A stretch of 64,000 bases of DNA. It comes from Candidatus Poribacteria bacterium. GTDB lineage: Bacteria; Poribacteria; WGA-4E; WGA-3G. Position 1 is the stretch's first letter, and every line of letters starts with the position of its first letter. Under the pieces are notes generated by a model. The model ran no database searches, was not told the origin of the DNA, and saw nothing but the letters and a program-made list of their open reading frames with translations. The translations under genes and the position numbers were made by a program. Shown in pieces: positions 2,886 to 62,862 of the stretch. The DNA is taken from positions 4,381,924 through 4,445,923 of the forward strand of contig OZ244821.1 of assembly GCA_965220325.1 (NCBI GenBank), written 5' to 3'.

Positions 2886-4234
2886 TAACCCTCCGCTCTC
2901 TTTTGACGTTCTCTTTGTGCTTCTGTCATAGCAAACAGATCTCCCATTTCGTCCCCAAAGAAATTTTCGGGCCAGTTCGCTATATTACCGAATTCATCCA
3001 TTTCTAACTTGTCAATTTCAGAAATACCTTCTTCATTACGGCAGAAATAGAGGGCAGTTTTATCAACGCTAATCTTTTCCTCAGCAATACGCCGCTGCAA
3101 CCGGTTTAAGAGGTGTTCGCTGTGGCTCTCCACCAAAATCTGAAGGTTGCGTTCCGTAATAACTTCTATCAGTAGGTCTGCAAGTTGGGATTGAACCTTC
3201 GGATGGAGATGCATGCCCGGTTGTTCCAAGATTAGTGTAGAACCCTCTGGAGCATAATAGCAATGCACTAACACTGGCAGAAATTGTGCTAACCCGTAAC
3301 CCATGTCAGCTAGCGTGACCTTCGCGCTATCAGGTGTCTTTTGAATAAGGACATCATAATCCCGATCTGTGCCTACACTACTCCGTTTAATAGAAAAGGC
3401 ATAACCAAGATCCATTTCTCGGAGCCACCAAGAGATTCGCTTCTCAATAGAGACATTTTTTCCTTCATAAGGCGTTGTTCGCTGATCCACGCGAGCGTTG
3501 AGTAGAGAGTCAATCATATTTTCGCCGCTTTGCCCGATGCTTTCAGGATGTGTTCCTTCCCAATGGTAGATACGTTTCGGTTGGACGCGAGTCGGACCGA
3601 GCGGATAGACGTGAGCAAATAGTCTCCTAAATTCAAATGCAAATCGGGTTATTGGATCGCGGCTTGGGTCAGGATGGTGGGATTGACCATAGATTTTTCC
3701 TGAGAAATTTCCCGTTATGACCTGCCCCTTATTTCCCGATTTAGTACGGGGACCAAAGACTATAGAAGGAGTGCTGAAATCACCGTTTACAACTTGCTCT
3801 TCATTTTCAGATTTAACGTGGTAATGACCTTTTTCAACAGAGACTCTGTTCTTTCTGCAAAAAATAGTAGCATTAAAGGTAAAACTCTCAACATTTAACG
3901 AAGCATCAATATAACCATTGAACTGATCACGGAGAGGGATAGTAAACGGCTCCTGGACCTTACATCCAAATTCCAACTCAAGCAAGGCATCTTCTTTATG
4001 CCCATGAATCACTTCACGGAAATTGCCGAGATTAACGAGAGATCCTTCATCACCGAAGAAGATAATTTCATTTAAATCTGGACGCTCTGCGGTCTGTTTA
4101 AGCAGCAGGAGCATCTGCAACAGGCTGCTCTTCCCAGAACTATTAGTCCCGAAAAAGCCTGTCAACGGTGCAAGTTTCACCTCGCCACTATCTTTCCACG
4201 ATTTGAAATTTTTCATCCGTATATGTGTAATCAT
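2885..4234 (-). CDS. ABC-type AAA_15/AAA_21-like ATPase with DUF3696-like C-terminus, copy 2, about 449 aa
   Basis: Start re-assigned to the ATG at 4232-4234 (MITHIRMKNFKSW, matching the paralog MITHIHVKNFKSW). It has a GGAGG Shine-Dalgarno 8 nt upstream; the ORF-track start at 4321 lacks an RBS. Walker A GTNSSGKSS; C-terminus LILEQPGMHLHP...ESHSEHLL...NWPENFFG. Confidence 0.7.
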   Translation of the reverse strand: MITHIRMKNFKSWKDSGEVKLAPLTGFFGTNSSGKSSLLQMLLLLKQTAERPDLNEIIFFGDEGSLVNLGNFREVIHGHKEDALLELEFGCKVQEPFTIPLRDQFNGYIDASLNVESFTFNATIFCRKNRVSVEKGHYHVKSENEEQVVNGDFSTPSIVFGPRTKSGNKGQVITGNFSGKIYGQSHHPDPSRDPITRFAFEFRRLFAHVYPLGPTRVQPKRIYHWEGTHPESIGQSGENMIDSLLNARVDQRTTPYEGKNVSIEKRISWWLREMDLGYAFSIKRSSVGTDRDYDVLIQKTPDSAKVTLADMGYGLAQFLPVLVHCYYAPEGSTLILEQPGMHLHPKVQSQLADLLIEVITERNLQILVESHSEHLLNRLQRRIAEEKISVDKTALYFCRNEEGISEIDKLEMDEFGNIANWPENFFGDEMGDLFAMTEAQRERQKRAEG

Positions 4235-4351
4235 TTTTTCTGCCTCCGTATTAACTCTATTATACGCAATTTCACGAGAAAATTCAAGCGGATCAATATA
4301 AAGTAGAACCAAGATCCACATCGAAAATTGAATGATCCTGAAATGAGATTT

Positions 4352-9775: not shown

Positions 9776-9835
9776 AAAAAAACGCCGCTGTCAAATTTAA
9801 TTTTTAAGGAACCTTCCTTATTTTTACTTTACTAA

Positions 9836-10060
9836 AGTTTAGACAATTTTAAGAGGTCCAAGGTTTTTGATCGGATACGCTCTTTTGTACCATAGGAGAC
9901 CGTTGGTTTCCTGTGGTCTCTTTGTACCATAGGCTGTATGAAGATTAAATAAATATTTCGGTAATCGTTGAAGATCGCGAGCGCAGCTCGCTCCTACCAA
10001 GAGGCTATTGATACATTACCGAATTAAATTCTGAAACTTCATTTAGCCTGTGGCAGTGAT
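9836..10060. repeat. Dispersed intergenic repeat, copy A (shares blocks with 58005-58090), with an internal duplication
   Basis: Shared blocks actaaagttt(a/g)gacaattttaa, ctcttttgta(c/g)cataggctgt and tagcctgtggca. ctcttttgtaccatagg occurs twice in copy A, and gatcggatacgctc recurs at 9871 and 10059. Confidence 0.5.
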
Positions 10061-10487: not shown

Positions 10488-10883
10488 AAGCACAGATGCA
10501 CTGCCTCTTAAAGTCCCTGATAACCTGACACCTGCGATCACAACCGGAACCTGAAACGCCCGAACTTGAACCAATAGACCCTAATCCATCGCAGAAAAAA
10601 ATATAACGCAAATTTTTGCGTACAAAAAAAATTAAAGTGCCTTTAGGACAAAAATCACAGCAGCCGAACGCATCCATGTTGAAATTGTTATACTTGAACA
10701 GGAGGCTAAATTCTGATAGAATATCTCCTAAGCAGGAAAGAAGAGGCATTTTTACATTCCTTTCAAAACACTTCTACGTTTTTATGAAAGGATGCCTCTT
10801 TTCTGCTTGTTGTCATCTTAATTCGTAAAATTGTCCAAACTATAGTACCAATTGCGAAAACACAACTGAAAAGGAGACACACA

Positions 10884-51571: not shown

Positions 51572-53215
51572 ATGGAAAAAGAAAACATCCTTGAACTTCG
51601 GAATGTTACAAAGACCTTCGGTGATTTCGTCGCTGTTGACGGTGTTGATTTTGCGCTGCGAGCGGGTGAGATTCACGCGATTTTAGGTGAGAACGGCGCG
51701 GGTAAGTCTACACTGATGAATCTTATTTATGGACTCTATCAACCGTCGGATGGACGCATCTATGTTACAGATCGTGAAGGTTGGCGGCGTAGACTGCATG
51801 CGAAATCACCACGTGACGCGATTGTTAACGGTATCGGCATGGTGCATCAGCACTTTATGCTAATTGAAAATCTGACTGTCGCTGAGAACATCGCGTTGAG
51901 TCTCGGGCAATTAAAAGGAGATCAGAAAGATCGGATGGAAGGATGGAAGGATGGAAGGATGGATGCCTCTCAGTCTTCCATCCTTCCACGCTTCCTGTCT
52001 TCTCTTCCGTTCCCTGATTTTTGGTTTAAGAAAGCGGAAGCGATTCGTATCACGCAAGCACTCTCTGAGCAGTTCGGTTTAACTGTCGATCCGACAGCCC
52101 TCGTACGCACCCTGTCGGTCGGGTTGAAACAGCGGGTTGAAATTTTAAAGGCATTGGCGGTTGATGCCCGGATTCTCATTCTTGATGAACCGACGGCTGT
52201 CCTGAGTCCGCAAGAGGTGGAAGGCTTCTTTAGAATTCTACGCAACCTCCAAGCCGACGGTCGCGCGATTATCTTCATTAGCCACAAAATGAAAGAGGTT
52301 CTAAGCATCAGCAATAGGATTACTGTGTTAAGGCGTGGCAAGAAAGTCTATCTCGGTCCGACAGGTGAACTAACGGCACGTGAACTCGCGCGCGAGATGA
52401 TCGGGGAAGAAATCAACGAGGTTCAACCTTCTGTAGGGGGCAGGTTACCCAACTCGGACGAAAACGATCCCGCAGATAGCGTGCTACAACTCGAAAATCT
52501 AACGGTACTCGGTAGCCGAAACGAAATCGCGGTCTCAGATGTCTCGATGGAAACCCGTCGCGGTGAAATTGTCGGCGTTGCTGGGGTTGATGGCAATGGA
52601 CAGCGCGAACTCGCCGAGGCGATCATGGGTTTACGGCACCGGACATCTGGAACGATAAGCATTTCAGGTGCCGATCCACGGGGGACAAAAGCGGTCCGGC
52701 AACGCGGGGTCGGTTACATCCCTGAAGATAGACAGACGACAGGTATCATCGCGTCGTTCTCGGTTACAGAGAACCTCTTGCTGAATGTGACGCATTTGGA
52801 GAGGACAGCGCGTTGGAATATCCTCAACGAAACCCGAAAACGGGGCATAGCAAAACACCTCATCGCTGATTACGACATCCGTCCGCCTGTCGCTGGCATT
52901 CCCGCCGCTGCACTCTCCGGCGGCAATCAACAGAAAGTTGTCCTCGCCCGCGAAATCTCGCTCCTACCCGATCTACTTATTGCCGTTAATCCGACACGCG
53001 GCTTAGATGTCAACGCGGCTCGTTACGTACACGAGAACTTGTTGGCACAACGCGACGCAGAAAAGTCTGTGCTCCTCATTTCAACAGAGTTAGATGAGGT
53101 CTTGCTCTTGAGTGATCGGCTTTTTGTGATGTCAAGGGGTAAGTTGATTGAGGCGACCGCACAACGCAACGACATTGAGGCACTCGGGTTGTTAATGACG
53201 GGGGAAGGGTTATAA
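51572..53215 (+). CDS. ABC transporter ATP-binding protein with two nucleotide-binding domains (BMP/sugar-type)
   Basis: Two Walker A motifs (GENGAGKST, GVDGNGQRE) and two signature regions (LSVGLKQRVEILKAL, LSGGNQQKVVLAREI). It contains an in-frame repeat insert at 51934-52000. Confidence 0.85.
   Translation: MEKENILELRNVTKTFGDFVAVDGVDFALRAGEIHAILGENGAGKSTLMNLIYGLYQPSDGRIYVTDREGWRRRLHAKSPRDAIVNGIGMVHQHFMLIENLTVAENIALSLGQLKGDQKDRMEGWKDGRMDASQSSILPRFLSSLPFPDFWFKKAEAIRITQALSEQFGLTVDPTALVRTLSVGLKQRVEILKALAVDARILILDEPTAVLSPQEVEGFFRILRNLQADGRAIIFISHKMKEVLSISNRITVLRRGKKVYLGPTGELTARELAREMIGEEINEVQPSVGGRLPNSDENDPADSVLQLENLTVLGSRNEIAVSDVSMETRRGEIVGVAGVDGNGQRELAEAIMGLRHRTSGTISISGADPRGTKAVRQRGVGYIPEDRQTTGIIASFSVTENLLLNVTHLERTARWNILNETRKRGIAKHLIADYDIRPPVAGIPAAALSGGNQQKVVLAREISLLPDLLIAVNPTRGLDVNAARYVHENLLAQRDAEKSVLLISTELDEVLLLSDRLFVMSRGKLIEATAQRNDIEALGLLMTGEGL
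51934..52000. repeat. Palindromic micro-repeat inserted in-frame in the ABC ATPase gene: (GGATGGAA)x3 plus the inverted copy TCCATCCTTCC
   Basis: ggatggaaggatggaaggatggaaggatgg atgcctctcagtc ttccatccttcc: an 11-bp stem and ~14-nt loop. It encodes ...MEGWKDGRMDASQSSILPRF... Confidence 0.55.
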
Positions 53216-53418: not shown

Positions 53419-54504
53419 ATGATATCGAAATTAGGCAACATATTCAACAGATTAAAAAGAATCAACATTATTCATTGGCTGGCGGCACCGGTTATAATTT
53501 TGGCGAGTGCGTTTATTGTCAACGCTATTATAATGCTGCTCTGTCACTATAACCCCTTGGATGCCTACTTAGCTGCCGTGGATGGTGCCTTCGGTGGTAA
53601 GCGGAAATTCGGGGAGACGTTGGTGAAAAGCACTCCGTTTCTGATGACTGGACTTTCCGTCGCGATGGCGTTTCGGTGCGGGATTTGGAACATCGGTGCT
53701 GAGGGGCAGTTTCTGATAGGAGCGCTAGCAGCGACATGGTTTGGAACGAAACTCGCGCCTCTTTTTCCCGAAAGTCCATGGATAGCGGTACCGATGTCGC
53801 TCGGTATCGCTATACTTGCGGGTGGAATGTGGGGGCTGATCCCCGCAGTGCTCAAGGTAGCACGCGGTGTCAACGAAGTTATCAGTACGATTATGCTGAA
53901 CTACGTCGCTATCCATCTCATGAATATGATGATAGATGGCGGTCCCTTGCAGGAGGCATCGCAGCGTGGTCCACAGAGTGACCGGATTGCGGAGTGGGTA
54001 TTCCTACCCCGGTTTTTCCCGCCGCATCGGATCCATCTCGGCATTGTTATCGCTGTGGTATTAGCTATTGTCCTTACATTCATCCTTTTTCGGACAGCGT
54101 TTGGCTACCAACTCCGGGCAGTTGGAGAGGGTGCGGCTGCAGCGGAGGCAGCAGGGATTTCGGTCGTGCATAACACGCTTCGTGTCTTTTTCATTAGTGG
54201 TGCACTCGCGGGCCTTGGCGGCGCGATTGAACTCACAGCACTGACACGTCGGTTATTTCTTAACTTCTCACCCGGATACGGTTATACAGCGATTGCGGTT
54301 GCATTGTTAGCAAAGTTGAATCCGTTGGTGACAGTTGCCGCGGCACTGTTGTTTGGCGCGCTATCGACCGGTTCATATAGTATGCAACGCAAGGTCGGTA
54401 TCTCTGACAGAGTAACGTTTGTAATACAAGCGACGATCCTCCTATTTGTTATCGGTTACGGTTCTATCCAGCTTTTCCGAAAACGTGCGTCTACACACTC
54501 TTAG
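53419..54504 (+). CDS. ABC transporter permease (BMP-family system, permease 1)
   Basis: Multi-TM with the family length; follows the ATPase. Confidence 0.8.
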   Translation: MISKLGNIFNRLKRINIIHWLAAPVIILASAFIVNAIIMLLCHYNPLDAYLAAVDGAFGGKRKFGETLVKSTPFLMTGLSVAMAFRCGIWNIGAEGQFLIGALAATWFGTKLAPLFPESPWIAVPMSLGIAILAGGMWGLIPAVLKVARGVNEVISTIMLNYVAIHLMNMMIDGGPLQEASQRGPQSDRIAEWVFLPRFFPPHRIHLGIVIAVVLAIVLTFILFRTAFGYQLRAVGEGAAAAEAAGISVVHNTLRVFFISGALAGLGGAIELTALTRRLFLNFSPGYGYTAIAVALLAKLNPLVTVAAALLFGALSTGSYSMQRKVGISDRVTFVIQATILLFVIGYGSIQLFRKRASTHS

Positions 54505-54526
54505 GACTATGTTCATCTGTAACTTG

Positions 54527-54550
54527 TAGTCGCGAGTTCTACTCGCGACT
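54527..54550. terminator. Stem-loop GTCGCGAGT-tct-ACTCGCGAC downstream of the permease (no T-tract)
   Basis: A 9-bp perfect stem. It is followed by the direct repeat gacagaaccatcaagga x2 at 54574-54607. Confidence 0.3.
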
Positions 54551-54859
54551 CTTAACATGGGGAAAAGGTTTGACAGAACCATCAAGGACAGAACCATCAA
54601 GGAACTGACGCCCAAGGTCCAGCGAAAATAGAGGGACCTTGACAGTGTTCTCGCCGATGCTCGCTACAGTTAGAAAAAAGGTGTTGCTTTTATTTTCCGT
54701 GTGAGGTATTATAGTCTTATCTGTTGGATAGGAAAGCAAGCACCTGCTCCCTCGCGGGTGTCCTATCCGCCCGCTTGCTTGGGGACAGCAGAGGCAGGCA
54801 GTGAGAACCAACAATCAGAGCAGACAATTCAGGGACTTATGTGCCAATCGTGAGATCCG

Positions 54860-56008
54860 ATGAACGAGATTAGAGATGGACACTACACGCTCGGTATCGC
54901 TTATCTGAATGCGGAACAGTATGCCGAAGCGATAACGCATTTTCAGCAGTCGGTGGAATTAGACGCGACTTTTATTGAGGGGTACCACGCGCTTGCGCTG
55001 GTACACTTTGGTGCGCATCGTTTGAAAGACGCTAAAGCAGCGGCTTTAGAGGCACTAAAGATTGATACGACGCACGCTCCGACGCTTTCCTTCCTACAAG
55101 CACTTGATCCGGGCGCGTCCGCACCGCGGGAAACTGTCGCGCCGAGTGAACCTCCCGATGTCGTCGCGACACAGGCTGAAACAGAAAATACCGCGAAGCC
55201 GACTGCGGCGGAAGTCCCGACGATCCCCGCCGATCCGCCTGAACAAGAAGCCGTGCCGCCGAAAGCCGATGCTGCCAATGATACCGATATAGACAAAACC
55301 CTCGAGCGGGGTATCACATTTTTGGCGAACAAACAATATCTGCAAGCCGAAGAAGCGTTGAAGAAGGTAATAAAAGCCTCCCCGAACCATGCCGTTGCGC
55401 ATTACCATCTCGCACAGAGTTACATGGAAACGGGTGCGTTGACAGATGCGAGTGTTGAAGCGGACACAGCGTTACGTCTGAATCCTTCCTACCAGCCCGC
55501 GCAACAACTCAAAGAGGGCATCCGTTATCTCGCGAACCGAGAAAGACACCGCCGACTTCAAAAGAAACTCATCAGATACTGCGTGCCGGTGGTGGTCGTC
55601 GTGCTTGCTGTTTTTCTCGGCTTCCGATATGGTGTTTTCAAAGGGATATTGCCAGCATCGACACCGCCGCAACTTTCGATTGACACGACGCTCGAAGAAC
55701 CACAGGAGAAGAACGGCTACATCGATGCCGGCGAGTCGGTAAAGCTGAAGTTGTCCGTCACGAATATGGGCGGTGCTGGTAAAAACCTGATTGTCCGTGT
55801 GGTGCCAAAAAGCATCAAGGGCTTACGGTATCATGCAGCTGATAGGACAGTGAACATCGCCAAAGAAGGTTTCGCAACGTTGCGTATCCCGATCGCTGCG
55901 GATAAAGATGTCGGTACGAAGCGGGTCTCACTGAAAATAGATGTCTTAGATGCGTATCAGAGCGTGCTTGCGACAAAGGTCGAGCATCTCTCTATTCAGT
56001 CTAAATAA
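54860..56008 (+). CDS. TPR-repeat protein with a central TM segment and C-terminal domain
   Basis: TPR-like helices at the N-terminus and middle; the TM segment YCVPVVVVVLAVFLGF. Confidence 0.55.
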   Translation: MNEIRDGHYTLGIAYLNAEQYAEAITHFQQSVELDATFIEGYHALALVHFGAHRLKDAKAAALEALKIDTTHAPTLSFLQALDPGASAPRETVAPSEPPDVVATQAETENTAKPTAAEVPTIPADPPEQEAVPPKADAANDTDIDKTLERGITFLANKQYLQAEEALKKVIKASPNHAVAHYHLAQSYMETGALTDASVEADTALRLNPSYQPAQQLKEGIRYLANRERHRRLQKKLIRYCVPVVVVVLAVFLGFRYGVFKGILPASTPPQLSIDTTLEEPQEKNGYIDAGESVKLKLSVTNMGGAGKNLIVRVVPKSIKGLRYHAADRTVNIAKEGFATLRIPIAADKDVGTKRVSLKIDVLDAYQSVLATKVEHLSIQSK

Positions 56009-56020
56009 GGGGGCATTGCT

Positions 56021-57832
56021 ATGAATACGAATCGGTGGCTATGGTATAAAGTTTTACGTGGAAAATATCGCAAATATGCGGTTCGGATTTCTGTGGTTGC
56101 TCATATCATCCTATTCATTAGTGTGCCGCTCTTTTTTATTCAGACGGAGCCGCAAGTGTTGGAAGATGAAATCCAAGTAGAACTGCTTACGGAGGTGCCG
56201 CGGCAGGTCGTCAAGAAGAAACCGCCCCCGGTGCCCAAGAAAGAGCCTGAACCTGAACCCGAACCTCCGAAGCCTGAGATGCCACAGATAGAGGCGAAGA
56301 AACCCGAACGGAGAAAGATGACATCAGAAAAAGAGGTCTCTGTTGTTCAACAGAAGCCGTCTGTAGACATTGCGAAGCTGTCTGTCAGCACAGAGACGGG
56401 GGTTGATATTCAACAACCGTCTGTCAAAAGATCAGATGTTGACGCGCCGGCGTTGTCAGAGACACCCGATTTAGCAACGGATGCGAATTTACCGACCTCC
56501 CCTGAAGCGGTGCTGTCTCCGATCGGCGCGCCAGAGGGGGTCTCTGAACACGGGAGCCAGACAAAACGCAACCGTACGGGGGCGAGAAGTCCGCAAAAAG
56601 GTGTCGGTGAAGGTATCCGAAAGGCGGTCCGTGAGACAGGCGCGTCTACAGGTGTTGGTAACGACACCGGTGGTAGCAAAACCGCGACGACTGGTGACGG
56701 TGCTGCGACCTTTAGCAGTATCATCGGTGACTTGACAGATGATATTATCGCCAGTAGTGGTGGCAGACCGATTGATGTTGTGTTCGTTGTGGACGCTTCT
56801 GGGAGTATGCAGGATAACATCAACGCCGTTGCGGAACATCTCGGGCAAATGGTGGACGCTTACAAAGCCTCTGAAATAGATTATCAACTCGGACTGTCGC
56901 ATTTCAACATGGGCGGTGGAAACCCTCAGCAGAATAATATCAAGGTCTTCCAGTTGCTGAGAGACTTGTCGATATACAAACGCAGGCTCTATGAGATTGT
57001 GCCGACCGGCGATGAAAACGCGTTAGATGCGATCTCTGAAACGGTCGGGCAGCTGCGGTTTAGAACCGATACGATCAAACACCTTATCCTCGTGACAGAT
57101 GAGCCTTTTACAAGCCTACAAGGACACACCGCGGATGCCATCATCAAACTCTGTCAAAGAAACGAACTCTTTGTGAATGTGCTCGGGCTGCCCGTGCCGG
57201 AACACAAACGCCTCGCATCCGAAACCGGGGGGAGTTGGCACGCCGTCCCGGAAAACCCGATAACACATCAGCCGACAGCTCGCGCCGTAAACGCACAGAC
57301 GATCGGTGACATCATCCTTGCCGACGGTGCGAATATCCCTGTAGATGTTATCTTGTTTATTGACTCCTCTAAAAGTATGGAAGATAAAGTTCCCTACATA
57401 ACAGAGCAGATAGACTTGTGGATCCGCAACTGGGAGAACGCGAACATTGACTACCGGATCGGCGTTGTCCGCTTCCGTGCGGAGCAGACGGTCAATATCG
57501 TCAATGTCTTCAAGCCCCCGCAAACCCAAGAACAGATACACAAGATTTTACAGCTGCCCTGTCAAGATAATGAGAACCTCCTTCACGCCGTTGTTGAGGG
57601 GGAGCGAAAGCTGAAGCGACGCCCGAATGTCAAAACCCATTTCATTCTCATCACCGATGAACCGGGCGATCCAAAGGCACCTATCGCAGGCACGATCGGA
57701 TTGCTCAAGGAGCTCCCCGTCGTCGTTTCTGTCATCGGTGCGACCGATCCCTTTCAACAACAAGTCGCGTCAGCGACCGGCGGTGTGTATGTCCGAATGC
57801 CGAATGCATCGTACAGCACGCCTTATGAGTGA
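56021..57832 (+). CDS. Membrane-anchored Pro/Glu-rich protein with two von Willebrand factor A domains
   Basis: N-terminal TM; the KKPPPVPKKEPEPEPEPPKPE linker; two vWA MIDAS-like motifs (VVDASGSM, FIDSSKSM). Confidence 0.65.
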   Translation: MNTNRWLWYKVLRGKYRKYAVRISVVAHIILFISVPLFFIQTEPQVLEDEIQVELLTEVPRQVVKKKPPPVPKKEPEPEPEPPKPEMPQIEAKKPERRKMTSEKEVSVVQQKPSVDIAKLSVSTETGVDIQQPSVKRSDVDAPALSETPDLATDANLPTSPEAVLSPIGAPEGVSEHGSQTKRNRTGARSPQKGVGEGIRKAVRETGASTGVGNDTGGSKTATTGDGAATFSSIIGDLTDDIIASSGGRPIDVVFVVDASGSMQDNINAVAEHLGQMVDAYKASEIDYQLGLSHFNMGGGNPQQNNIKVFQLLRDLSIYKRRLYEIVPTGDENALDAISETVGQLRFRTDTIKHLILVTDEPFTSLQGHTADAIIKLCQRNELFVNVLGLPVPEHKRLASETGGSWHAVPENPITHQPTARAVNAQTIGDIILADGANIPVDVILFIDSSKSMEDKVPYITEQIDLWIRNWENANIDYRIGVVRFRAEQTVNIVNVFKPPQTQEQIHKILQLPCQDNENLLHAVVEGERKLKRRPNVKTHFILITDEPGDPKAPIAGTIGLLKELPVVVSVIGATDPFQQQVASATGGVYVRMPNASYSTPYE

Positions 57833-58004
57833 TCGCATCCACACCCTAAGCAAAAAGAATGTTGACACGATTTTCAAAGTCTTGTATCCTAAAGTCAATG
57901 CTGGTGATGCGGGCTTGACTTTGGGTATCCGACCCAAAGCCGCATCCCCCCTTTCAAGCTGGGATCCGGCAGCGGCAGATTCCGAAAAGTTTCTGTATAA
58001 TTAC

Positions 58005-58090
58005 TAAAGTTTGGACAATTTTAAAATAGTCACGATTTCTGGGCGGACACCCTCTTTTGTAGCATAGGCTGTTAGCCTGTGGCACATTCA
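58005..58090. repeat. Dispersed intergenic repeat, copy B (see 9836-10060)
   Basis: actaaagtttggacaattttaa ... ctcttttgtagcataggctgttagcctgtggca. Confidence 0.5.
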
Positions 58091-58222
58091 TAGTTACCGT
58101 TATTTTTCCGCAAGTTCTGTGGTAGATGAAACACCAAAGGAAATCCTTTCAACCTTTCAGAACGCAACTGAAATGTAATATGAATCGTCCAAACTACTGT
58201 ATATTAAGCGACGGATCGGAAA

Positions 58223-59320
58223 ATGATCGATACAGAGTCCACTATGACTGAAGAAAAAATTCAAGAAAAAATCCTTAAATGCCTTGAATCAGAAGTCGTA
58301 AATATTTTACTGACAGATCATTTGATGACAGATCAGCAACGTTCCGTTTTCGATGATGTTCATCGGAATATGTTCTTGCCGAAAACGATCGCATCTTTAA
58401 AAAGAAAAACCGAGAAAACTCGCGACGAAGAGATGCAGTTATTTGCGTTGAAAAACACACCGCGCACCGAGCTTCAGCAAAAAATTTATGTGAATATGCT
58501 CAGGGCGTTCATCGATGGACAAGTAAACTGGTTACAAGGAAAAGCACAACGTTCGACGACCGAGAATCGTGTCCTCGATGCGTTGACCGCAGTAGAAAAA
58601 ACATCACATTTTCGGACGCCAATTCGGTGTAGGTGGTGTTTTAAGGCGCAATATCGAATTCGGTTTGGCAATGCTGGGATAGGATTCGCAGATATTGCTC
58701 TACTGCTCAATAGGAAGCCGTTCGTGATTGTAGAATGTAAAAAACCGAAGGTTAGCCGGGCGGTTATCAGGAAGGGTAAAGAACAATTGGAATCCTATCT
58801 CAACGCATCAAGGGCAAATTTAGGTATCTTTGCTAACAGCGATGATCCCCAAAAGTGGACGTATTACGATAATAGTATCGGATTTGATAAGATTGACCGC
58901 GCAACATTTTGGAAAAAAATAAAGGCAGCATTCACCACCGAACGCGATATTGAAAAAGAGGCACAACAACTAAAACAACAGCGTATCGAGGAACGCGCCA
59001 AAGCACTCGTAGCCCAAGCCTCAGAGGATATAAACGCACGTGCAAATAAAAAGATAGACGAAGAGGCGAAAAAGCGTGTGACTGAAAACGCTATACAAGG
59101 TACAGAAGCACGGCTACTACAAAAAATACGCAGGGCAGAATCAGGGCTGCGAGAAAAAGAAAAAAAGCAACTCGAATCCCAACTACAAGGAAAAATAAAG
59201 CAATTAGAACATAAAATAAAAAGCCAACAAATAGCATTAGATGAGAGTCGAAATCGGGTAATGTGGGGGTGGTTTTTGTTTGGTGTTGCTATTTTGATTT
59301 TGATTATAAGTCATCAATAG
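58223..59320 (+). CDS. HsdR_N-like PD-(D/E)XK nuclease-domain protein fused to a long Lys/Glu-rich coiled coil and a C-terminal TM anchor
   Basis: GIGFADIALLLNRKPFVIVECKKPK matches the D...(E-x-K) core of the Type I restriction HsdR N-terminal domain family. A ~130-aa coiled coil (EKEAQQLKQQRIEERAKA...) follows, then the C-terminal WGWFLFGVAILILIISHQ. Confidence 0.4.
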   Translation: MIDTESTMTEEKIQEKILKCLESEVVNILLTDHLMTDQQRSVFDDVHRNMFLPKTIASLKRKTEKTRDEEMQLFALKNTPRTELQQKIYVNMLRAFIDGQVNWLQGKAQRSTTENRVLDALTAVEKTSHFRTPIRCRWCFKAQYRIRFGNAGIGFADIALLLNRKPFVIVECKKPKVSRAVIRKGKEQLESYLNASRANLGIFANSDDPQKWTYYDNSIGFDKIDRATFWKKIKAAFTTERDIEKEAQQLKQQRIEERAKALVAQASEDINARANKKIDEEAKKRVTENAIQGTEARLLQKIRRAESGLREKEKKQLESQLQGKIKQLEHKIKSQQIALDESRNRVMWGWFLFGVAILILIISHQ

Positions 59321-59360
59321 CCTCTCGATTGCGAGATTGAAACAAAAAGGATAAAAGTAT

Positions 59361-59603
59361 ATGTCAACACACAACCAGCAACAATTTGAATTTGCCTGTG
59401 AACACCTTGAAAACTTCCTTGAAAGTGAAAATTCAAGAATTTCTCTGTCGCCCACGGCGGTTGGCATCGTGTTTCTTCTGCAGGGGTTTGATAAGGAGCG
59501 AGCGCAGGATTTACTGAAACAGGTCTATTTTAAGTGGAATCAACAAGCCGATAGTCCCGTGGAAGAATATATCCAGCGGACGGATAGTAATGAAAACAGA
59601 TAA
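59361..59603 (+). CDS. Small hypothetical protein (80 aa)
   Basis: ORF with a weak AAGGAT RBS; no recognisable family. Confidence 0.25.
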   Translation: MSTHNQQQFEFACEHLENFLESENSRISLSPTAVGIVFLLQGFDKERAQDLLKQVYFKWNQQADSPVEEYIQRTDSNENR

Positions 59604-59620
59604 GAAAAATCGGAAACATA

Positions 59621-61741
59621 ATGAAAGGAGTAACAGCGTTCATGAAAAATACATTTTTAGCAATGTTACTCATGTCGCTTGCGGGACTGACCGTGGCACG
59701 AAATGCCTTCGCTCAAGAGTCACCACAATGGCACTTACCGGAAGGGGCCACAGTCCGTCTCGGTAAAGGTAGCATAAACGAAATCGCGTATTCCCCAGAC
59801 GGCACGCGTTTGGCGGTCGCAAGTCGTATCGGTATCTGGATGTACGACACCGAGACGGGTGAAGCCCTCGCCCTACTCGCGCCGAATACTGGGGTTAATA
59901 GTATGTCGTTTAGTCCGGATGGACAGATATTGGCAACTGTAAATGGGAGCTTTCGCGTGCATCTATGGCACGCAACGACTGGTGAACGCTTGCAAACGAT
60001 CCGCGGGGTTGCGAGGAACAACTATCTGTTTATGCTGGATAACGTGGTGTTTAGTCCGGATGGAAACACACTCGCAGTCGGCAGTCGTAGCAACGCCTTG
60101 TTTCTGTCGGACGTAAACACAGGTAAGCAACTGCACACATTGATAGAATCCGGGTATGGTAACGGGATTAAGCCTCCTATATCGTTTAGTCCGGATGGAA
60201 AGATACTCGCAAGCCATATATGGACATACGTAGATGGAGAGGCGAAAAGATACTTATTCCTGTGGGATGTCAACACCGGGGAAAAACTGCTGCAAATACT
60301 TACAGAGGACAAGTTATCGTTTACGGTTAGTAGCATCTCATTTAGTCCAGATGGTTCCATGCTGGCAATAGGAAGTGGGGACGAGATCCGATTCTGGGAT
60401 GTCAACACGGGGGAAACACTGCAAACACTTACAGGACATACGAGTGTCAAAAGCATTTCATTTAGTCCCGATGGTTCTACGCTGGCAACAGCAAGTGGAG
60501 ACGAGATCCGATTCTGGGATGTCAACACAAGGGAAACATTGCAAACACTTACAGGACATACGAGTGTCAAAAGCATCTCATTTAGTCCCGATGGTTCTAC
60601 GCTGGCAACAGCAAGTGGAGACGAGATCCGATTCTGGGATGTCAACACAAGGGAAACATTGCAAACACTTACAGGACATACGAGTGTCAAAAGCATTTCA
60701 TTTAGTCCCGATGGTTCTACGCTGGCAACAGCAAGTGGAGACGAGATCCGATTCTGGGATGTCAACACAAGGGAAACATTGCAAACACTTACAGGACATA
60801 CGAGTGTCAAAAGCATCTCATTTAGTCCCGATGGTTCTACGCTGGCAGCGGTCCCCGAAGTTTTTGGGGACCGCACAGTGCTGCTCTGGGATGTCAACAC
60901 CGGCAAACTGCAAACCTTCCCAGTGTCGCGTTCGATCTATAGTGTGGCATTTAGCCCCGATGGAAATACACTCGCAATCGGTGGAAATTGGATAACCTAC
61001 CTATGGAATGCAAACACCGGGGGACCGATACACACCTTTTCAAAGATTGCGTGTCGGGTCTATAGCGTGGCATTTAGTCCGGATGGAAACACACTCGCAG
61101 GGGGCGGTAGTGATGGCATAGTCCGGTTATGGGATATAAAGACCGGCACGGAAAAGCAAATACCCACAGGGCAAATCGGTGACACGAGAGTGGTATTTAG
61201 TCCAGATGGAAACACACTCGCAACTGTTCCAGATATAGGCCACAGGCAGGGGCGTCTATGGGATGTGAATACAGGCAAGCAACTGCAAGAATTCACCGCG
61301 GATGGATCAGGACTCGTACGCATCTATAGCATGGCATTTAGTCCCGATGGAAATACACTCGCTACAGGTAGTGGCGATTATGATCATACTGAGGGATCGT
61401 TTGGAACCGTGTCGCTGTGGGATGTCAACACGGGGGAAACACTGCAAACACTTACAGGACATGCGGACAGGGTGAGTAGTATCTCATTTAGTCCCGATGG
61501 TGCTACGCTGGCAACTGGAAGTCGGGACGGCACAGTGCTGTTATGGGAACTTAAACCTTTTTCACCGGAACTCGAAAGAATCACAGCCGACCTCAATATC
61601 GACGGGACCGTGAATATTCAAGACCTCGTCTTAGTCGCTTCAAACTTAGGTAAAACAGGCGAAAATCCTGCGGATGTCAACGGAGATCGTATCGTGAATA
61701 TTTTGGATTTGGTTACTGTGGCAAATCAGTTCGGTCCGTAA
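59621..61741 (+). CDS. Secreted WD40 beta-propeller protein with C-terminal type-I dockerin-like domain
   Basis: Signal peptide (alternative start at 59642 after AAAGGAG). WD40 blades (SFSPDG.TLA...WDVNTG). C-terminal DLNIDGTVNIQDLVLV...DVNGDRIVNILDLVTV gives two calcium-loop dockerin repeats. Confidence 0.8.
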   Translation: MKGVTAFMKNTFLAMLLMSLAGLTVARNAFAQESPQWHLPEGATVRLGKGSINEIAYSPDGTRLAVASRIGIWMYDTETGEALALLAPNTGVNSMSFSPDGQILATVNGSFRVHLWHATTGERLQTIRGVARNNYLFMLDNVVFSPDGNTLAVGSRSNALFLSDVNTGKQLHTLIESGYGNGIKPPISFSPDGKILASHIWTYVDGEAKRYLFLWDVNTGEKLLQILTEDKLSFTVSSISFSPDGSMLAIGSGDEIRFWDVNTGETLQTLTGHTSVKSISFSPDGSTLATASGDEIRFWDVNTRETLQTLTGHTSVKSISFSPDGSTLATASGDEIRFWDVNTRETLQTLTGHTSVKSISFSPDGSTLATASGDEIRFWDVNTRETLQTLTGHTSVKSISFSPDGSTLAAVPEVFGDRTVLLWDVNTGKLQTFPVSRSIYSVAFSPDGNTLAIGGNWITYLWNANTGGPIHTFSKIACRVYSVAFSPDGNTLAGGGSDGIVRLWDIKTGTEKQIPTGQIGDTRVVFSPDGNTLATVPDIGHRQGRLWDVNTGKQLQEFTADGSGLVRIYSMAFSPDGNTLATGSGDYDHTEGSFGTVSLWDVNTGETLQTLTGHADRVSSISFSPDGATLATGSRDGTVLLWELKPFSPELERITADLNIDGTVNIQDLVLVASNLGKTGENPADVNGDRIVNILDLVTVANQFGP
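60361..60847. repeat. Four tandem 120-bp repeats (copies 2-4 differ by a single base) inside the WD40 gene, encoding 40-aa blade units SGDEIRFWDVNTRETLQTLTGHTSVKSISFSPDGSTLATA
   Basis: The period is exactly 120 bp (60361/60481/60601/60721). The only variation among copies 2-4 is catttca versus catctca. Confidence 0.8.
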
Positions 61742-61932
61742 GGCGTATGCTTGAAGAATCATTGACGTTTAGTTGACCTGTATTTTGGCATGGAGATGTC
61801 CCCGATGCAATATGATAAAAACCGATTCACATAGGTAAAAGATAGTGGGTAAAAACACTATATAGGAAATCCCATGGATTTACAAGTAGCAACTTGGGTT
61901 ATTATAATGTCTAATGTTCAATAGTTAAAATT

Positions 61933-62862
61933 ATGTTTGAAGAGATTCTTTCGGCAATGATTCGTGGGGCGACACCGCTCCTACTCGCAGCGCTCGGTGA
62001 GGTCATCTCCCAACGTGCCGGTGTACTGAACATCGGCATTGAAGGGATGATGCTCATCGGCACGTTTTTTGGGATGGTCGGATCCTTTTATATGGCGGAA
62101 TTCGCGATGTTCGCACCATGGTTTGGACTTTTAATCGCAGGACTTAGCGGACTTGCCGCTGCCGCGCTCTTTGCGTTATTCGCTATCCGACTGCGTGGCG
62201 ACCAAGTTATCGTTGGTACAGCGATGACACTTCTGGCATTGGGTTTGACTGAGGTTATCTATCAACGGCTCTTCGGTGTAACAGGCATTGCGAAAGGCGT
62301 TCCTGCGTTTCAACAGATTGACCTGCCACTCCTCTCTAAAATCCCGTTTTTCGGACGTGCACTGTTTTCACATAATATTTTGGTTTTCATGACCTTCCTG
62401 CTGCTGCCGTGTGTCTATTTTTTCCTCTACCATACTCAACTCGGGTTGCGGATACGCGCCTGTGGCGAGCATCCGAAAGCGATTGCGACTGTCGGTTCGA
62501 GTGTTCTCCGTTTACGGACGCTTTGCCTGCTATTCGCGGGGACGATGGCGGGTATGGCAGGCGGCTATCTTTCACTTGCGGATGTCCCCTATTTTACACC
62601 TGGTATGACCCAGGGACGTGGGTTCATCGCGTTGGCGATCGTTATTTTTGGGAAATGGCATCCTGTGAAGGCTTGTGGTGCTGCGCTCCTCTTTGGACTC
62701 GGTTTGGCACTCGATGCGCGGTTCCAAGCGTTGGGTTTGGGAATCCCGCATCAGTTGTGGTTGATGTTACCGTATCTGCTTTGCTTAGCAGTGTTGGCGG
62801 GATTTGTCGGACGTACTGAAGCACCGCTTGCTTTGGGGAAGCCTTACGCGGAATCGGAATAG
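61933..62862 (+). CDS. ABC transporter permease (BMP-family system, permease 2)
   Basis: Multi-TM, 309 aa, the usual partner of the 53419-54504 permease. Confidence 0.75.
   Translation: MFEEILSAMIRGATPLLLAALGEVISQRAGVLNIGIEGMMLIGTFFGMVGSFYMAEFAMFAPWFGLLIAGLSGLAAAALFALFAIRLRGDQVIVGTAMTLLALGLTEVIYQRLFGVTGIAKGVPAFQQIDLPLLSKIPFFGRALFSHNILVFMTFLLLPCVYFFLYHTQLGLRIRACGEHPKAIATVGSSVLRLRTLCLLFAGTMAGMAGGYLSLADVPYFTPGMTQGRGFIALAIVIFGKWHPVKACGAALLFGLGLALDARFQALGLGIPHQLWLMLPYLLCLAVLAGFVGRTEAPLALGKPYAESE

Follow-up and report, generated by a model that had tools for sequence, protein, structure and literature searches.

A predicted tail-anchored, HsdR-N-type nuclease-like protein with a long charged stalk in a Candidatus Poribacteria genome

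The HSDR_N_2 and HSDR_N families represent the N-terminal nuclease domain of Type I HsdR subunits and their relatives, classified as group 48 in a survey of PD-(D/E)XK proteins (PMC3424549). Association of such folds with membranes has been considered before: RmuC (PF02646, COG1322) is a single chain in which a PD-(D/E)XK domain is joined to a transmembrane (TM) helix and long helical/coiled-coil regions, and COG4741 was proposed in 2005 as a membrane-anchored 'guardian against foreign DNA' (PMC1189080). The experimentally proven case is SNIPE, also named PD-lambda-1, a membrane-bound GIY-YIG nuclease which cuts phage DNA during its injection, is toxic once its anchor is removed, requires DUF4041, a domain binding both DNA and the tape-measure protein, and is auto-inhibited at the membrane, its tethering presumably shielding the chromosome (Saxton et al., Nature 2026, PMC13190303). 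The present analysis concerns a gene located at 58223..59320 in a stretch of 64,000 nucleotides of Candidatus Poribacteria (contig OZ244821.1, positions 4,381,924 to 4,445,923, assembly GCA_965220325.1; hereafter the window), the product of which is predicted to join a restriction-type nuclease head to a charged helical stalk and a C-terminal membrane anchor. It is read here as a stand-alone tail-anchored nuclease acting on DNA at the membrane, a reading given a probability of about 40%.

The open reading frame (ORF) is found exactly where a preliminary description, made from the sequence alone, had placed it, and its product is a 100% match to entry P0001 of the homologue set. The parts of the gene are as follows, with the evidence for each in brackets.

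58223..59320, + strand: complete ORF of 365 amino acids, tail-anchored HsdR-N-type nuclease-like protein, long form (ORF list)
58250..58312, + strand: first helix of the nuclease fold, residues 10-30, beginning MTEEKIQEKILK (AlphaFold2, family alignment)
58313..58612, + strand: helical insertion, residues 31-130, of about four helices (gap in the ~247-residue forms in the alignment; predicted local distance difference test score, pLDDT, 74-96)
58613..58897, + strand: predicted PD-(D/E)XK core, residues 131-225 (Pfam, AlphaFold2, Foldseek, pairwise match to the pAQ6 enzyme)
58691..58693, + strand: D157, catalytic motif I, on the second strand (invariant in 54 clusters)
58733..58741, + strand: E171-C172-K173, (D/E)xK motif, at the end of the third strand (invariant in 54 clusters; aligns with ELK of the pAQ6 enzyme)
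58784..58798, + strand: Q188-L-E-S-Y192, RecB/HsdR-type QxxxY motif, in the helix after the third strand (Q188 and Y192 invariant)
58898..59248, + strand: long charged proline-free helical stalk, residues 226-342 (composition, AlphaFold2 helices 226-287 and 294-364, conserved columns)
59252..59314, + strand: single C-terminal transmembrane helix (tail anchor), residues 344-364, predicted N-in/C-out (Kyte-Doolittle, family flank charges)

The D-(hydrophobic)n-E-x-K signature on which the preliminary description had based an HsdR_N-like nuclease core is present in the protein as GIGFADIALLLNRKPFVIVECKKPK, and the core itself is supported by a Pfam match that passes its threshold, by a full set of catalytic residues that do not vary among homologues, and by a predicted fold that fits. 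HSDR_N_2 (PF13588) matches residues 144-216 with 30.0 bits (E=5.8e-7), exceeding the gathering score of 25 bits, and HSDR_N (PF04313) reaches 24.6 bits, marginally below its cut-off of 25.1; homologues bear precomputed PF13588/PF04313 matches as well. In PADLOC, only the N-terminal part of MTase_I, a Type I methyltransferase model (PDLC03034), was matched (residues 142-334, E=1.2e-8), and searches of the window protein against NCBIfam and PHROGs gave nothing significant, only coiled-coil-type noise. The closest direct relative of annotated function outside the family is the N-terminal head of a 1179-residue N-6 DNA methylase, WP_012308631, encoded on plasmid pAQ6 of the cyanobacterium Picosynechococcus PCC 7002; the pairwise match to it (E-value 1e-11) brings each of the five motif residues into register.

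Homologues in 54 clusters were recovered when 5.8 billion proteins were searched. The invariant columns of their alignment include D157, E171, C172, K173, Q188 and Y192, the first, second and fourth of these being the D/E/K set whose conservation had been put forward as a check of the nuclease assignment, and the catalytic-motif residues D/ExK are retained in distant representatives too. In EcoR124I, mutation of the QxxxY motif slows or abolishes cleavage (PMC2475608).

AlphaFold2 was run on the family alignment for the whole protein and for residues 1-240 separately, giving a pLDDT of 84 for the former and of 90 for the latter (predicted template modelling score, pTM, 0.81). The predicted protein consists of a helix (10-30), a helical insertion (37-125) and three strands (138-147, 153-162 and 165-172), followed by a helix (179-196), strands 200-204, 213-216 and 222-224, and the helices 226-287 and 294-364. 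In the model, D157 belongs to the second strand, ExK closes the third and QxxxY falls within helix 179-196, the canonical PD-(D/E)XK arrangement, and the predicted order of strands and helices fits this fold. The first helix is conserved across all family members and, in the alignment, immediately precedes the strands in short forms. The insertion 31-130, located between the first helix and the first strand, is confined to the long form (P0001-P0007) and has no Pfam match; it is possibly an adaptor or specificity module.

The top Foldseek matches to PDB and viral models are almost exclusively restriction-fold nucleases, including BbvCI, 3ijm, HsdR of EcoR124I, Card1, CinB, DrdV (7lo5), NucS/EndoMS and SfsA, together with a phage protein labelled 'Type I restriction enzyme R protein N-terminal domain'; probabilities reach 0.99 (3ijm), with template modelling scores of at most 0.46 and no match at E<=0.001. 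In the sequence searches of the PDB, the best matches were CAP at E ~0.2, set aside as chance, and Card1 at 0.37. By these Foldseek matches and by its homology to the head of the pAQ6 methylase, the window protein's head is, as judged from sequence and predicted structure, of restriction-enzyme type, a member of HSDR_N_2 of the kind found in HsdR-N and at the head of Type IIG enzymes.

At the other end of the protein, the single C-terminal TM helix noticed in the preliminary description corresponds to the sole hydrophobic segment, residues 344-364 of 365, where the Kyte-Doolittle 19-residue mean peaks at 2.13 and after which only ~2 residues remain. Across the family, K+R average 1.6 on the N-terminal side of the TM helix and 0 in the ~2-residue tail beyond it; within the anchor G349 and W350 are nearly invariant, in a hydrophobic helix of pattern W-G-W-x-L-F-G. 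The N-terminus is acidic and therefore is not expected to be a signal peptide, and the lack of such a peptide, together with the positive charges on the N-terminal side of the helix, would place head and stalk in the cytoplasm. With its one TM helix right at the C-terminus, a basic flank before that helix and no sign of a signal peptide, the protein is predicted to be tail-anchored, head and stalk lying in the cytoplasm.

The stalk connecting both ends comprises ~117 residues (K 15%, E 14%, A 13%, Q 11%, R 9%, proline 0). Its proximal part, I243-L262, approaches the core in conservation, with I243, E244 and Q248 invariant and A247, K251, R254, I255, R258 and L262 at least 90% conserved. Stalk length ranges from 80 to 154 residues across the close family, differing by the gain or loss of units with the motif (I/L)-I-(D/E)-(E/Q)-E-A-K-K-R-V-T-E, and the window stalk bears the recurrent motif I-D-E-E-A-K-K-R-V-T-E. 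The preliminary description had called this region a Lys/Glu-rich coiled coil; the charged helical segment is supported by composition and AlphaFold2, but its supposed heptad richness is no better than that of shuffled sequences. By simple, crude measures, period-3.5 hydrophobic power and windowed best-register a/d occupancy equal those of shuffles (p ~0.35-0.65), and heptad periodicity is likewise absent above shuffles in six homologues, so that the term coiled coil is unproven for the stalk. Opposite-charge i/i+3,4 pairs are enriched (26 vs 18.7 +/- 3.5 in shuffles, p ~0.03), and a salt-bridged single helix fits this enrichment at least as well as a coiled coil.

When compared with the described systems, the window protein resembles HsdR in its D...ExK...QxxxY set with HsdR-like spacing and in the order of strands and helices. 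It differs in that the charged stalk and C-terminal membrane helix take the place of the superfamily 2 (SF2) helicase, no helicase-family Pfam match being obtained even at E<=10, and neither hsdM nor hsdS lies beside the gene, its neighbours being TPR, VWA and WD40 genes in the window and toxin-antitoxin genes elsewhere. Without helicase domain and hsdM/hsdS partners, it is not an HsdR subunit. Type IIG/IIL-like restriction-methylases share the aligned D, ExK and QxxxY residues, with a match extending into the helix after the head; those enzymes, however, continue into methyltransferase and target-recognition domains, whereas the window protein has no methylase and is predicted to be anchored.

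With SNIPE are shared a single-gene organization, an inner-membrane anchor and a cytoplasmic nuclease (both by prediction for the window protein), an elongated body and variable adaptor regions in homologues. SNIPE, on the other hand, has an N-terminal anchor, DUF4041 and a GIY-YIG nuclease where the window protein has a C-terminal anchor and a PD-(D/E)XK core. Since neither DUF4041 nor T5orf172 (GIY-YIG) is matched in it by Pfam, nor PD-Lambda-1 by PADLOC, the window protein is not SNIPE and the resemblance is one of analogy, not homology. RmuC carries an N-terminal anchor and a central or C-terminal, McrC-like nuclease; given this reversed order of parts and the absence of a PF02646 match, the window protein is not RmuC either. 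COG4741 is alike in its predicted cytosolic PD-(D/E)XK domain, its one membrane helix and the function speculated for it, but has an N-terminal anchor, no stalk and a core of another PD-(D/E)XK subfamily.

The claim of the preliminary description that this architecture is undescribed thus holds in part: no curated whole-protein family covers it, but the same parts in mirror order are known from RmuC. To that extent it was overstated, a membrane-anchored protein of this kind having also been proposed in COG4741 and a membrane-bound nuclease proven in SNIPE. Full-text literature searches on PF13588/HSDR_N_2 and on membrane-anchored nucleases found no paper on a head, stalk and C-terminal anchor in this order. 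What the sequence offers is a domain assignment with good support, within an architecture that is still uncharacterised.

The homologues place this architecture in a wider family, found so far mainly in Poribacteria-type genomes. No names were attached to the homologues from the 5.8-billion-protein search; one homologue is named generically 'type I restriction enzyme HsdR N-terminal domain-containing protein'. Most are ~247 residues long and have no counterpart of window residues ~31-130, and the full-length members in all 54 clusters share a chassis of N-terminal helix, core, charged helix and hydrophobic C-terminal helix. Some members (P0048, P0051, P0058; L008 6921-8609) possess, at the N-terminus, a second copy of the nuclease-like domain that no longer has ExK, and several also share an unannotated N-terminal module (…FRGHFDL…NDYLLTDI…KITPFSTDPYSVKLW…).

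A core-only profile built from seven sequences and searched against 1.84 billion representatives detected 346 proteins at E<=0.001. Among the 142 representatives new to this core search, 35 have a TM helix at the C-terminus after an E/K/R/Q-rich stalk, and other distant relatives have mid-protein or four-helix membrane regions after the head, or TPR or Tubulin_2 fusions. Membrane attachment is therefore, as far as sequence prediction goes, a recurrent theme of this HSDR_N_2 branch, and the N-terminal region appears as a hot spot for add-on modules. The four-helix set consists of proteins of 600-750 residues (P0090, P0094, P0102, P0108, P0111, P0115, P0119, P0123, P0139, P0153 and P0156) with an N-terminal head, coiled-coil segments and a four-helix membrane region without Pfam match; in P0160 the head is fused to a Tubulin_2 domain. 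In a sister family in Poribacteria, its layout likewise seen among the 142 representatives, the HSDR_N_2 core is joined by an OB fold (tRNA_anti_2) and a zinc ribbon, by a mid-protein TM helix and a coiled coil, and by a ComEA-type HHH_3 domain at the C-terminus. Its members are the following.

L011, 7101-8990: sister-family gene
L012, 7857-8321 and 8243-8821: sister-family gene, broken into two ORFs
P0088, P0117, P0095: sister-family proteins

The copies in L011 and L012 both adjoin an aminotransferase gene, and the layout of this sister family would put the DNA-binding domain outside the membrane and the nuclease head inside.

As for genomic context, the short form occupies one syntenic slot in five loci (L002, L007, L013, L014 and L015), flanked by a GFO_IDH_MocA gene and an acetyltransferase gene and surrounded by DUF433/DUF5615, HicAB and HEPN modules. 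The gene is missing from the same slot in 3-4 related loci, on contigs retrieved with the acetyltransferase as query: in L021 HicB and DUF5615 lie ~300 nucleotides apart, the slot of L024 is nearly empty, and those of L022 and L023 carry instead Trypsin_2, DUF2971 and a DUF932-like gene. It is therefore dispensable there, and the short form belongs to the changing cargo of a hotspot rich in toxin-antitoxin modules. One member is located on an 88-kb plasmid-like contig with Rep3 and ParA genes, adjoining a gene for an AbiEi_4-domain protein, and two distant members have PDC-S57-like and PD-T4-4_A-like genes no more than a few kb away. In an all-vs-all comparison of ORFs within 3 kb in 11 loci, an analysis of homologue neighbourhoods that the preliminary description had called for, no conserved neighbour was found across subfamilies, shared neighbours being confined to syntenic, closely related loci. 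Small ORFs beside the nuclease gene are not conserved, and no competence genes adjoin family members in the loci compared.

Taken together, a restriction-type head whose active site is complete, set on a long helical spacer and held inside the cell by a tail anchor, would make a stand-alone nuclease acting on DNA at the membrane. Head and stalk would be held within ~15-20 nm of the inner membrane, confining the head to a shell beneath it, away from the bulk chromosome, where it would meet DNA crossing or touching the membrane, for instance that injected by phages or entering by conjugation or transformation. As there is no helicase motor, no methyltransferase/specificity partner and no conserved neighbour, target selection would be mainly spatial, by a logic analogous to that of SNIPE with another nuclease fold anchored by the opposite end, and the insertions and extensions by which family members differ at the N-terminus could serve as adaptor modules. 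The occurrence as variable hotspot cargo, the copy on the plasmid-like contig and the ComEA-fused sister family lend no more than circumstantial support to the role in abortive infection or in restriction of incoming DNA which the preliminary description had proposed.

More specifically, the protein could be a convergent PD-(D/E)XK counterpart of SNIPE, that is, a single-gene, modification-free immunity system telling self from non-self by position only. In that case the head, on a stalk of adjustable length, would cut DNA while it crosses the inner membrane, and the sister proteins in which the core is joined to a TM helix and ComEA-type domain or to four TM helices would couple DNA binding outside to cleavage inside. 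This narrower proposal is doubtful.

The figure of about 40% for a stand-alone nuclease at the membrane is set no higher because nuclease activity, insertion into the membrane and topology are each predicted and the neighbours in the window are not defence genes. Several observations weigh against this reading. PADLOC found no match for the TPR, VWA and WD40 neighbours, which are of envelope or secreted type. The search of a phage collection gave zero homologues and that of a plasmid collection a single remote match, and no counterpart of the SNIPE sensing domain was identified in the window protein. None of the Foldseek matches reached the E-value threshold given above, and PDB sequence searches with the protein and the core profile returned nothing significant. 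Finally, six multi-megabase contigs each carry a different family member, a distribution which would also fit a lineage-specific housekeeping role.

This last distribution leads to the alternative of an enzyme of DNA maintenance or DNA uptake at the membrane, cutting recombination intermediates as RmuC might or processing DNA imported on purpose. The mirror-image layout of RmuC (PMC1189080) and the Poribacteria sister family with its OB fold, zinc ribbon and ComEA-type domain would suit such an enzyme; the absence of the gene from its syntenic slot in related contigs, which marks it as dispensable, the toxin-antitoxin surroundings, the plasmid-like copy and the lack of both a Pfam RmuC match and adjoining competence genes would not, and this explanation is considered unlikely. 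The same toxin-antitoxin neighbours (DUF433/DUF5615, HicAB, HEPN), the AbiEi_4-domain protein beside the plasmid-like copy and the toxicity of anchor-less SNIPE could instead point to a toxin-like or abortive-infection effector, in which the anchor would keep a non-specific nuclease harmless until infection or stress frees it or activates it against the cell's own DNA. However, no conserved antitoxin, sensor or protease partner adjoins the gene, the surrounding small ORFs are not conserved and a cleavage or release site is not evident, making an effector of this kind rather improbable.

In the window itself the surroundings are of another kind, and a component of an envelope complex working with the TPR, VWA and WD40 proteins of the island has to be considered. 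The order VWA, nuclease-like gene, WD40 recurs in L001, where the neighbours are 79% and 57% identical to those of the window, hydrophobic segments occur in the TPR and VWA proteins, and the N-terminus of the WD40 protein resembles a signal peptide. Most members, namely the ~247-residue and distant forms, nevertheless have no such neighbours, the synteny between the window and L001 may merely reflect genome relatedness, and a cytoplasmic nuclease head would have no obvious role beside secreted repeat proteins, so that participation in such a complex is very unlikely. Equally hard to sustain, and most improbable, is a non-catalytic membrane scaffold or DNA tether retaining the fold without cutting DNA: although the conserved basic stalk positions K251, R254 and R258 and the extra N-terminal domain copies lacking ExK in some members would be compatible with it, the main copy keeps the five catalytic-motif residues without exception while duplicated copies have lost them, which argues for selection on catalysis.

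Poribacteria are a poorly studied phylum rich in defence genes. If the stand-alone nuclease indeed restricts DNA by position, non-specific nucleases would have become tethered to the membrane repeatedly, with unrelated folds and opposite anchoring, position in the cell would be strengthened as a general bacterial means of distinguishing foreign from own DNA, and Poribacteria would provide a compact example. If it is a housekeeping or uptake enzyme instead, the ComEA-fused relatives could indicate a nuclease active during DNA import.

The gene lies in a block inserted into an ABC-transporter operon, bounded and occupied by the following features.

54505..61932, strand not assigned: 7.4-kb block splitting the ABC-transporter operon between its two permease genes (Pfam)
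51572-53212: ATPase gene of the operon
53419-54504 and 61933-62862: BPD_transp_2 permease genes (Pfam)
54860-56008: TPR gene (Pfam)
56021-57832: VWA gene (Pfam)
59621-61741: WD40 gene (Pfam)
58001..58068, + strand: copy of a dispersed intergenic repeat (81% identity to 9829-9896)
9832-9852 (+), 10825-10845 (-) and 58004-58024 (+): copies of the repeat core

The inserted island of the preliminary description is thus recovered, the TPR, VWA, nuclease-like and WD40 genes separating two BPD_transp_2 permease genes of one operon, with no integrase or transposase within the 7.4-kb block. So is the dispersed repeat before the gene, the copy at 58001-58068 ending ~155 nucleotides upstream of the start codon. 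The 21-nucleotide core of this repeat, CTAAAGTTTRGACAATTTTAA, occurs 3 times in the window against 0 expected, and no copy was found in those related loci that were searched for it. Its first two copies are inverted and flank a ~1-kb AT-rich stretch (GC content 0.38) that lacks long ORFs and is possibly a small non-autonomous element.

The long form in L001, also flanked by VWA and WD40 genes, has an outer context unlike that of the window, with a Tn5-type transposase upstream and no permease downstream. At L001 6417-9349, the transposase gene lies directly upstream of the VWA gene, which starts at the equivalent of residue 130 of the window VWA protein, suggesting its truncation by insertion. 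The 80-residue ORF downstream of the nuclease-like gene (59361-59603), considered as a partner, has no Pfam match, does not resemble the ORF found in the corresponding place in L001 and is probably not a conserved gene. Rfam gave no RNA family anywhere in the window, and a scan for promoters and terminators around the gene gave counts not above shuffles. Within the WD40 gene, 120-nucleotide tandem units at 60212-60931 are 94-98% identical at the DNA level and therefore suggest a recent expansion of blades. At the other end of the window, direct repeats of 80-154 nucleotides with 71-84% identity, 1.84 kb apart, at 1556-2372 and 3393-4245, probably represent two tandem paralogous genes.

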